A stretch of DNA of 21,935 nucleotides from Pseudobdellovibrionaceae bacterium (GTDB lineage: Bacteria; Bdellovibrionota; Bdellovibrionia; Bdellovibrionales; Bdellovibrionaceae). Below, piece by piece: positions 14,261 to 14,719 of the stretch (the stretch's first letter is position 1; the number at the start of each line of letters is the position of its first letter). The DNA lies in NCBI GenBank assembly GCA_044359815.1, contig JBIKLL010000043.1, forward strand, positions 1 through 21,935, read 5' to 3'. The translations under genes were made by a program, and so were the position numbers. Under the pieces are notes generated by a model. That model had not been told where the DNA came from. It made no database searches and worked only from the letters and a program-made list of their open reading frames with translations.

Positions 14261-14613
14261 CCTTTGCTGAAATTTAAATTTTGAAAATTATTTTTATGAT
14301 TTTACACCTTGTGAATACTTGCTAACGGCCGCAAGCTCATCTCTCGTATTGCATAAATACAAAGGTAATTTGTTTTTACTGTTTTTAGACACATGCAGCG
14401 AGCGTGCGGGGCATATCTGGTGTTAAATTAAATGACTCAATACGAGAGATGAGCCCGCGGCCGTTAGCGAGTGTTTAAAAATAGTAAAAAAAATTATCTT
14501 TGTATTTACGCATCACCAGATATGCGGCGGTAAATTAAACGTCGCGCTCGCAAATGTATTCACAAGGTGTAAAATCATAAAAATAATTTTCAAAATTTAA
14601 ATTTCAGCAAAGG
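14261..14613. repeat. 353-bp composite inverted-repeat element with perfect 58-bp terminal arms and crossed internal complementary segments
   Basis: 14261-14318 is the exact reverse complement of 14556-14613. Internal pairs: 14319-14351/14438-14470, 14351-14392/14471-14511, 14398-14406/14543-14551 and 14411-14422/14514-14525. Confidence 0.95.
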
Positions 14614-14719
14614 CCTCCTGAATACCCAAGGGTCAAAGGCCTAAAAGCTGGTCCTCTTCTGGATCAAGGTCGGGCCCTGTATCATTTTGTCCATTATTAA
14701 AAATTCCGAACAGTTAAGC

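Follow-up and report, generated by a model that had tools for sequence, protein, structure and literature searches.

A dispersed, hairpin-shaped and nested non-coding repeat, probably REPIN/MITE-like, in a Pseudobdellovibrionaceae genome

REPINs are REP doublets that form hairpins and occur with RAYT transposases, as set out by Bertels and Rainey (2011, PMC3116915), and BIMEs are presented in a review as mosaics of REPs (PMC3184786). The element reported here is a member of a lineage-specific, non-coding family of hairpin-shaped (foldback) DNA repeats that is probably REPIN/MITE-like. Bacterial MITEs, with bcr1 of the Bacillus cereus group beside them, are a further point of comparison. In IS200/IS605 transposition, as at integron attC sites, the enzyme reads a folded single strand, and which strand is active is signalled by mismatches or extrahelical bases conserved in an imperfect hairpin.

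The element occupies positions 14261-14613 (353 bases) of the window, the whole 21,935-nucleotide stretch of contig JBIKLL010000043.1 (assembly GCA_044359815.1, Pseudobdellovibrionaceae bacterium, an uncultured predator akin to Bdellovibrio) that was analysed. A preliminary description, made from the sequence letters, had read it as five pairs of complementary segments in the crossed order O-A-B-C-D-x-A'-B'-D'-x-C'-O', specifying a four-way and a three-way junction. The order was recovered as described, and so were the complementarities: O/O' (14261-14318 with 14556-14613) is 100% complementary over 58 nt and D/D' (14411-14422 with 14514-14525) 100% over 12 nt, A/A' (14319-14351 with 14438-14470) makes 31/33 standard or G-U pairs, the C/C' core (14398-14406 with 14543-14551) makes 9/9 pairs, and B/B' was found split into two imperfect stretches of 39 nt (82%) and 23 nt (87%). 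The TAAATTAAA shared by the two linkers is part of a direct repeat of 20 nt (14413-14432 and 14520-14539, 80%). Within 14261-14613 no ORF reaches 50 aa; a small core ORF (ATG at 14393) was rejected as a candidate, as it runs into the variable hairpin and its end is not conserved. The parts of this copy, named by the units to which they belong, are:

14261-14318, + strand: outer left arm O, pairing with 14556-14613; varies among copies, complementary within a copy.
14319-14351, + strand: module A of the outer unit ('AA' variant, TTGC...GCAAGC...); invariant in the alignment.
14352-14392, + strand: arm B, left arm of the inner inverted unit, pairing with 14471-14510 (37 pairs in the consensus fold).
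14393-14424, + strand: reverse complement of the inner-unit module Z (rcZ), which includes C (14398-14406) and D (14411-14422); matches rc(Z) of basic elements in alignment and pairs with A' in the consensus fold.
14425-14437, + strand: what is left of tip hairpin H, namely the right half of its stem base; the first x linker lies here.
14438-14470, + strand: inner-unit module A as reverse complement (A'), the 'GG' variant TCGC...GCGGGC, which takes the inner position in composites.
14471-14510, + strand: arm B', right arm of the inner unit, placed by the inverted-repeat pieces, the consensus fold and the alignment.
14511-14555, + strand: module Z of the outer unit, a long allele with a small GCGGCG...CGTCGC hairpin, placed by the Z alleles seen in copies.
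14514-14525, 14531-14539 and 14543-14551, + strand: D', the second x linker and C', all inside outer Z.
14556-14613, + strand: outer right arm O', the 58-nt perfect complement of O.

A blastn search places copies of this dispersed repeat family at 96 sites in the 2.95 Mb genome, roughly 1% of its length if estimated as ~96 places of ~300 bp; the element at 14261-14613 is one of them. The basic unit, a hairpin, consists of module A (33 nt), hairpin H, which varies, and module Z (33-46 nt), which complements A imperfectly. Modules A and Z are highly conserved and pair with each other imperfectly, with fixed mismatches, and the stem of the intervening H is variable yet paired. The unit is surrounded by long arms whose sequence is specific to each copy and complementary inside it, and basic elements accordingly read O-A-H-Z-O'. 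Whole elements are AT-rich and span 200-560 bp, with copy-specific arms of 55-95 nt. The copy at 14261-14613 has the commonest, two-storey form, in which the H of the outer unit is replaced by arms B/B' and an inverted inner unit (rcZ-H-A'); in module order, composites read A+ D- A- D+ E+. With the inner unit upside-down, A is set opposite A', C opposite C' and D opposite D': the inverted inner unit alone gives the crossed A/A', C/C' and D/D' complementarity. About 12 simpler members have A and Z and lack A', B, C and D, so that A does not depend on A'. The segment connectivity first seen in a single copy recurs in 23 complete composites away from contig ends, with 5 more that lack only a recognisable Z end and 2 near contig ends; 11 basic units lie away from contig ends. 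The inner unit is always inverted, but this regularity comes from only two amplified architectures and so counts as two independent events.

Several properties of the modules were established across the genome. First, module A has 129 matches at up to 5 mismatches and the D' 12-mer 136 matches at up to 1 mismatch; the exact 33-mer of 14319-14351 occurs 54 times and the GG variant 44 times, in composites always in the inner position. Second, alleles of A and Z are paired in basic units, the GG variant of A occurring with the Z allele CCCCGCACGC in 3/3 and the AA variant with CCATGCGCGC in 5/5. Third, H is exactly 68 nt long in 27 units, and the polarity of its loop motif matches the A-to-Z direction in 27/29 units, the tip loop being inverted in 2/29. 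In the alignment of 21 copies, H is a 45-46- or 68-nt hairpin in the other 20, and the copy at 14261-14613 is gapped over its left half and loop. Fourth, arm B is almost invariant in the 21 copies and the B/B' mismatches are conserved. Fifth, 58 outer ends share the consensus A[AG]CT directly followed by GGCCCACTTG... Lastly, deletion and truncated forms are common, including deletion derivatives that retain only the base of B/B'. Within A, a short stem of 5 bp could form locally (CTTGC/GCAAG in 62 cases, CTCGC/GCGGG in 51); ~10 copies have it disrupted, and the consensus fold does not contain it. The same genome carries a second family of the same design in 38 copies, for which TwoAYGGAY RNA was considered and rejected: it scored 33-34 bits on both strands against a gathering score of 43, and we took these as generic hairpin matches.

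When a strand folds on itself, it would form a long rod in which O pairs with O', A with Z, B with B' and rcZ with A', with H as a further hairpin. Covariation shows this fold for O and H; for the invariant parts it is predicted from complementarity. Across 21 copies the rod model comprises 160 pairs with 97.7% of cells paired, and 57 pairs have double changes, a number reached by 0/500 shuffles and compared with 14-23 in slid controls. In the first helix of the rod (O/O'), 44/63 pairs have changed on both sides. The family probably acts at the DNA rather than the RNA level, because arm mismatches across the family are unbiased (G·T 43 vs A·C 42), the orientation of copies in co-directional spacers is 6 vs 5, and no Rfam family matches at the gathering score. 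The preliminary description had stated that all substitutions are transitions, which is correct for A/A' (one T·G, two A·C) and does not extend to a strand bias across the family. It had also recognised no described family, in agreement with the Rfam scan, which gave only sub-threshold matches to plant miRNA precursors and similar long hairpins.

The family appears confined to a narrow lineage. An exact 23-mer of module A had 0 matches in 185,579 species genomes, blastn in 40 relatives returned nothing except one 33-nt match (E 3.6e-4) that we took as chance, and a covariance model (R1) run on 150 genomes from the organism's family, with 16 candidates scored per genome, detected no homologue. 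In a synteny search for an empty site, three genes that follow glutamine synthetase III on its downstream side gave no tblastn match (E <=1e-5) in 80 related loci. In contigs of a related strain, 8/8 map to loci that are also occupied here, the contigs having been found by searching for the element, so that empty sites could not appear. Flanks of the shared loci differ by 3-14% between the strains, and A, B and Z are almost invariant. Orientation of the element is the same at 5 loci, flipped at 2 and unclear at 1 (2/7 assessable loci flipped), the flip calls resting on arm-to-core junctions ~55-70 nt from unique flank sequence. Interior architecture differs at 3 loci and the Z allele at 1; all strain comparisons are between short-read assemblies and the interior exceeds the read length, so these interior differences could be path choices.

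Copies are concentrated at gene ends. By crude gene calls, 25/37 lie between convergent genes, an arrangement that makes up 16.6% of all gene pairs in the genome (p ~8e-12), and 1/37 lies in a divergent spacer. ORFs of at least 100 aa overlap copies by more than 30 nt in 2/40, and both of these ORFs lie mostly inside an element. Copies between convergent genes often stand within a few bases of both flanking stop codons.

To identify a mobilising enzyme, the neighbours of family copies and the genome (91% complete, in a fragmented assembly) were searched, and no cognate transposase for the family was found in them. None of the genes proposed as candidates in the preliminary description (HUH/RAYT, IS110, tyrosine recombinase) adjoins a copy. 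A RAYT-like gene (C8:9501-10160) scores 72.5 bits against NF047646, for which the cut-off is 80, and is flanked by a different 22-mer repeat; its flanks contain neither A nor Z. A Y1-like gene, with a 211-aa product, is present in 8 copies, none adjoining an element, and the genome has no match to IS110 (PF01548), DDE_Tnp_1 (PF01609), DDE_3 (PF13358) or TnpB (PF07282). No TnpA or TnpB gene lies inside or beside the element. As candidates for a parent insertion sequence there are a single ISL3 and a single rve gene, and their ends are unlike those of the family. The two tyrosine recombinase genes (PF00589; C96:31633 and C26:7200) adjoin no element, the nearest being ~7 kb away. In the flanks of 40 copies no direct repeat was found at the ends that would mark a target-site duplication; A[AG]CT reads alike on both sides and is thus part of the inverted end. 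An attC-like reading was also rejected, there being no arrays and the AAC/GTT-like boxes of a unit not facing each other.

Taken as REPIN/MITE-like, the family would be a selfish or tolerated DNA repeat that has settled at gene 3' ends. Extrusion of a hairpin or cruciform may be important for its copying. The complementarity of the arms may be kept by arm-to-arm exchange, through inversion or gene conversion, or by selection for folding, and interiors may be altered in place by inversion, by hairpin deletion and possibly by exchange between copies. The earlier proposal of a mobile or invertible element stands in outline, as to a non-coding, dispersed hairpin repeat, the inverted tip loops and whole-element inversion at 2/7 loci; mobility itself stays putative. 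The exotic 'origami' of RNA or DNA gives way to a simple cause, a unit nested upside-down in another unit. Near-identical internal modules at ~100 old loci contrast with arms that drift yet stay complementary, with no strand bias. The near-invariance of A, B and Z is not predicted by neutral junk and needs purifying selection or between-copy homogenisation.

Purifying selection on the modules would favour a host or cis function, and the leading alternative, which we hold to be possible and a good deal less probable, is a domesticated cis-element at gene ends whose conserved, mismatched A x Z duplex is a binding or processing site under such selection. By analogy with REP/BIME it might, equally tentatively, end transcripts in both directions, affect mRNA stability, be cut by RNase III, or bind a nucleoid protein or a topoisomerase; REP/BIME sequences, as covered in the review, bind IHF, gyrase and Pol I and favour convergent genes (PMC3184786). 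The placement of 68% of copies between convergent genes, often a few bases from both stop codons, fits this alternative, as do the conserved mismatches of A x Z and B/B' and the near-invariance of modules over ~100 loci, even though these are so old that a strain with 3-14% divergence in the flanks shares them. However, no T-run follows the hairpin of the family, a terminator scan was empty at the element, orientation relative to transcription is even and wobble-type mismatches show no strand bias; deleted and truncated forms are common, and absence from the 150 other family genomes means that any host function is dispensable in relatives.

Somewhat less likely still is an undescribed class of self-nesting foldback element, in which an enzyme would recognise the conserved, mismatched A x Z duplex once a single-strand hairpin is extruded, and would insert the element into hairpin tips. 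Just one of the arms would travel with the element, its partner being made anew by fold-back priming; this would account for arms that, down to their substitutions, vary from copy to copy and still agree inside each copy. On the same self-nesting account, the two polarities present in a composite would make it active on either strand, which would explain the composite's success. If any copying mechanism, and not selection, is responsible for the invariant modules and the paired arms, it would be a general route for making and keeping long palindromes at bacterial gene ends.

Inversion of the element raises the prospect of a programmed switch, with the long inverted arms as recombinase sites and the asymmetric interior flipped to alter expression of neighbouring genes. 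The two flipped loci among the seven assessable, the two flipped tip loops among 29 units and the outward promoter-like hexamers in both arms agree with it. We nevertheless judge it improbable: the ~100 copies sit mostly at convergent 3' ends, where there is nothing for a promoter to drive, and neither of only two tyrosine recombinase genes is near an element. The promoter reading of the arms was itself rejected, since the hexamers are not commoner than in shuffles (6 vs 4.4 ± 1.8), and the -35-like hexamer covers variable arm positions. Homologous recombination between arms of 58 nt or more needs no dedicated enzyme.

The reading from which the analysis started, a pseudoknotted or switching ncRNA or ssDNA in which each of the five segment pairs would have a function and together they would make a four-way and a three-way junction, has very little probability left. 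All of the listed complementarities exist, the DNA-parameter minimum-energy fold of the 14261-14613 copy uses A/A' and not B/B', and forcing A/A' leaves the energy within ~1.5-12 kcal/mol of the rod for this copy, a rough figure as two constrained folds fell below the unconstrained minimum. Against this, the crossed pairs A/A', C/C' and D/D' have double changes at 0/54 base pairs in 21 copies, no better than shuffles, and one D/D' pair (columns 167/318) is broken in 9/21 copies. Basic members do without A', B, C and D, the fold of intact copies is a rod, Rfam gave no match, and from their geometry helices of 33 bp and 41 bp joined with no linker could not both form in an H-type pseudoknot.

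That the element is an assembly artefact, a chimeric repeat path in a short-read metagenome bin, is scarcely credible even though 39 module clusters are found no more than 400 nt from a contig end, no contig of four lake-water runs spans the whole 14261-14613 element and its H truncation is peculiar to that copy, since the same architecture was assembled at least 23 times here and independently in metagenome contigs L041 and L046, and both flank-to-arm junctions of this copy were seen in contigs of several independent lake-water runs. The invariant interior measures ~165 nt on one side, and short reads therefore cannot phase the interior of this copy with its flanks; repeats at ~39 contig ends are a main reason for the fragmented assembly.

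Compared with known systems, the REPIN/MITE-like reading draws on both names. With REPINs and BIMEs, in the features that the two cited papers describe, the family shares inverted, imperfectly complementary conserved end modules in pairs, a spacer that matters by its length and hairpin ability and takes compensatory changes (in A-H-Z, the stem of H has double changes), an extragenic position in many copies with a bias to convergent gene ends and persistence at fixed loci, and higher-order arrays of units in alternating orientation. It differs in flanking no RAYT gene, in its copy-specific arms of 55-95 nt, in elements that are AT-rich and longer (200-560 bp against ~100 bp for REPINs as described), and in units nested in one another's hairpin rather than side by side. 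IS200/IS605 elements and attC sites offer a looser parallel, as the fixed A x Z mismatches would suit single-strand reading; unlike IS200/IS605, the family has no two separate subterminal hairpins and no TnpA or TnpB inside or beside the element, and unlike attC sites its copies are not in cassette arrays and have no integrase nearby. With MITEs such as Correia, ERIC and RUP, as treated in the review (PMC3184786), it shares a non-coding, intergenic character, terminal inverted repeats, a long stem-loop, sizes up to ~400 bp and deletion variants. A target-site duplication and a parent insertion sequence, neither found for this family, separate it from MITEs, as does the fact that its best-conserved parts are internal rather than terminal, the arms being copy-specific yet pairing. 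The element at 14261-14613 itself, with perfect 58-nt terminal arms and no transposase gene inside, has the form of a MITE.

The element at 14261-14613 lies in the spacer between two + strand genes: it starts 30 nt downstream of a 165-aa ORF without a Pfam family, and a hexapeptide-repeat transferase gene begins 73 nt past its end. The order of its segments, O-A-B-C-D-x-A'-B'-D'-x-C'-O', matches that given in the preliminary description. An inverted-repeat scan recovered O/O' and D/D' as perfect pairs and B/B' as two imperfect pieces (37 pairs in the consensus fold); A/A' pairs at 31 of 33 positions and the C/C' core at nine of nine.

14261-14318 / 14556-14613, outer arms O/O', 58 nt, perfect pair
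14411-14422 / 14514-14525, D/D', 12 nt, perfect pair
14559-14587 (+), outward-facing sigma-70-like hexamers in the right arm
14315-14287 (-), outward-facing sigma-70-like hexamers in the left arm

The hexamers (TTCACA, 17 nt, AATAAT; 10/12) occur in both arms, those on the + strand being directed toward the gene starting at 14687, and the count of such hexamers in the element region showed no excess over shuffles.

The element is a repeat. Searching the genome of the window (2.95 Mb, 125 contigs, 91% complete) yielded 131 matching pieces, and blastn located the family at 96 places. At ≤5 mismatches, module A (33 nt) is matched 129 times, and 98 of these matches belong to two variants, TTGC...GCAAGC (AA, 54 times) and TCGC...GCGGGC (GG, 44 times). 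With 39 module clusters within 400 nt of contig ends, the family is a major cause of the fragmentation of this assembly. The window stretch occurs in lake-water metagenome runs, and in four such runs summed contig depth was ~100x for the element relative to its flanks. The host belongs to the Bdellovibrionales and is uncultured; its glutamine synthetase III has its nearest relatives in Bdellovibrionaceae and Pseudobdellovibrionaceae bins (identity up to 78%).

About a dozen simpler elements of ~226 bp, ordered O-A-H-Z-O', reveal the basic unit. Modules A and Z are nearly invariant, and Z complements A imperfectly, with 21 of 33 A positions paired with Z and the mismatches fixed (consensus fold). 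Between them, the hairpin H has a variable stem and a conserved base and loop, and is exactly 68 nt long in 27 units and 45-46 nt in 22 others. Since the loop motif follows the polarity of A to Z in 27 of 29 units (inverted in two), A-H-Z is one oriented unit. The architecture of the window element is the commonest, with 23 complete copies at a distance from contig ends, five in which only the Z end could not be recognised, and two close to contig ends. This composite keeps A and Z of an outer unit and replaces H with arms B/B' enclosing an upside-down inner unit, rcZ-H-A': the inner unit contributes its A as A' and the reverse complement of its Z as C and D, and D' and C' belong to the outer Z. 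Nesting of an inverted unit in an outer one is therefore sufficient by itself to give the order O-A-B-[C-D-x-A']-B'-[D'-x-C']-O'. In the window copy, H is without its loop and left half, and the sequence shared by the two x linkers, TAAATTAAA, differs in origin between them: its first occurrence is the leftover right half of H, and its second forms the loop of a small hairpin allele within Z. In a third architecture (four complete copies, several partial), a whole long-armed element sits inverted within the H of another. Each of the nested architectures represents one amplified lineage, so that the consistent inversion amounts to two independent events and carries little weight. A divergent member at C48:9006-9182 in the same genome has different arms and an altered 5' part of A and 3' part of Z; it retains GCTCATCTCTCGTAT and CACCAGATATGC, suggesting that constraint is strongest on these two stretches.

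Folding models were compared on an alignment of 21 composites. A rod formed by O/O', A with Z, B/B', rcZ with A', and H comprises 160 pairs, with 97.7% of cells paired and 57 pairs changed on both sides (222 cells), a result reached by 0 of 500 shuffles; when the partner was slid by 1-3 columns as a control, 14-23 double-change pairs remained. The double changes all lie within O/O' (44 of 63 pairs) and H. The long stems are maintained. The 54 crossed pairs (A/A', C/C' and D/D') showed zero double changes in the same composites, no better than shuffles, and the CACGAG allele of D' breaks one D/D' pair in nine of the 21 copies. Invariant pairs say nothing about either model. Module A is also present in basic units without A', B, C or D, where the GG variant occurs with Z allele CCCCGCACGC (3/3) and the AA variant with CCATGCGCGC (5/5), an association which fits pairing of A with Z and may reflect a single event. 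The preliminary description was right in its observation and wrong in its headline interpretation of a four-way junction, as the crossed complementarity results from nesting. Intact copies fold as the rod under both RNA and DNA parameters. The truncated H weakens the window copy, whose DNA minimum uses A/A', and the rod and A/A' forms lie within ~1.5-12 kcal/mol of one another (rough figures); a conformational switch is therefore thermodynamically possible in this copy, though the family gives it no support.

Nothing marks out either strand of the element as functional. The outer arms of 40 complete elements contain 2469 matches, 179 mismatches and 84 gap positions, and their wobble-type mismatches number 43 on one strand vs 42 on the other. 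Elements in co-directional spacers are oriented with transcription in six cases and against it in five, and an Rfam search returned only sub-threshold long-hairpin matches. The 58-bp arms of the window copy differ from those of copy C122 at three positions, all three altered on both arms. Such unbiased complementarity fits better with arm-to-arm exchange during inversion, or with copying of one arm from the other, than with selection at the RNA level.

The location of the family is biased to convergent gene ends. Based on crude gene calls (ORFs ≥100 aa, covering 88% of the genome), the 37 elements with two called neighbours were convergent in 25 cases, co-directional in 11 and divergent in one, compared to 16.6% convergent among neighbouring pairs genome-wide (binomial p ~8e-12 for the excess); many copies abut both stop codons. 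The outer end of the main arm subfamily, A[AG]CT|GGCCCACTTG.CTGC.GT, is recognisable at 58 ends. No target-site duplication was seen at element flanks, and in several copies (e.g. C91, C62 and C49:127462) arm complementarity extends past the outer end into sequence unalignable between copies.

The exact 23-mer of module A was found in none of 185,579 species genomes and in eight metagenome contigs (L041-L048) of a related strain, whose flanks are 86-97.6% identical to the window genome. All eight map to loci that also hold the element there, as expected for old insertions, in a sample that is biased because it was found via the element. Blastn against 40 relatives, covering 24 genera within the family plus 16 genomes from the order, found nothing, nor did a covariance model of the basic unit (201 positions, 81 pairs) in 150 other family genomes from 41 genera, with strict filters and 16 candidates scored per genome. 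At two of the shared loci (L048 / C49:51664 and L041 / C110), the matching flank and arm are joined to A in one strain and to rcZ in the other, so the element is in flipped orientation; the left arm of L048 resembles the reverse complement of the window genome's right arm, as whole-palindrome inversion predicts. These arm-to-core junctions lie ~55-70 nt from unique sequence and can be spanned by single reads. Orientation is the same at five of the remaining loci and ambiguous at one. The interiors differ between the strains as well: C110 and C34:14852 are deletion forms keeping just the base of a hairpin.

Exchange between copies would explain identical modules across old loci. Differences in architecture (L046 has a B-armed inner unit, C6 at that locus a long-armed one) and in Z allele (L043 vs C87) hint at such exchange, with the caveat that these are short-read assemblies in which the invariant interior (~165 nt) exceeds the read length, so that interior differences may be path choices. 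Purifying selection on a cis-element would also explain the identity.

Domain searches of the genome yielded no nameable mobilising enzyme for the family. The Y1 HUH transposase domain PF01797 matched nine places, eight of which are copies of one gene for a ~211-aa protein, with short tandem repeats rather than these elements on its flanks:

C23:186-821
C48:48162-48797
C56:2966-3616
C47:11949-12584
C49:93316-93951
C100:633-1268
C125:2378-3013
C8:23373-24140

An HUH-like motif (NHLHLKV) is present in this protein, which matches Y1, RAYT and IS200 models only weakly (21-25 bits; RAYT model 21.5); ~675 bp is conserved between copies, and the non-conserved flanks are rich in different 6-8-nt tandem units. 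The ninth place is a RAYT-like gene (72.5 bits vs NF047646, cut-off 80), bracketed at C8:9478-10287 by inverted copies of a 22-mer, AGAGACCGTACGACTTTTTCTG, distinct from the family studied here and present at 52 other sites. With 54 genome matches, mostly inverted pairs 95-300 bp apart, the 22-mer is a separate REPIN/MITE-like family, and the RAYT-like gene is likely its transposase. IS110, DDE_Tnp_1, DDE_3 and TnpB-type domains had no match in the genome. The DDE transposases found were just one ISL3-family gene at a contig end (C79:13190-14428) and one IS3-like (rve) gene (C40:about 1-1200, at the start of a 6.1-kb contig), with ends unlike the element's. Neither of two tyrosine recombinase genes is near an element, and where elements lie close together, the genes between them are ordinary.

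A second hairpin repeat family, with at least 38 copies, has a GC-rich core of ~60 nt tipping long AT-rich arms that are very different between loci, yet pair:

C101:4329-4516
C67:11900-12130
C109:15395-15600
C21:12930
about 34 more

A few of these copies share the outer arm GGCCCACTT... with the family studied here. The second-family core (…CTGCTCGGGCCAAGCCCCCGCC…) shows an apparent double change from CTGC/GCAG to CCGC/GCGG, and T-runs follow the hairpin on both strands, as in terminators.

We infer that the element functions at the DNA level, as REPINs and MITEs do. The basic unit agrees with the published description of REPINs (PMC3116915), in which the inverted ends are conserved and the spacer forms a hairpin and shows compensatory changes. 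The element is a sequence-novel, lineage-specific variant within the known class of extragenic hairpin repeats, of moderate interest for its nested composite form and conserved mismatched core.
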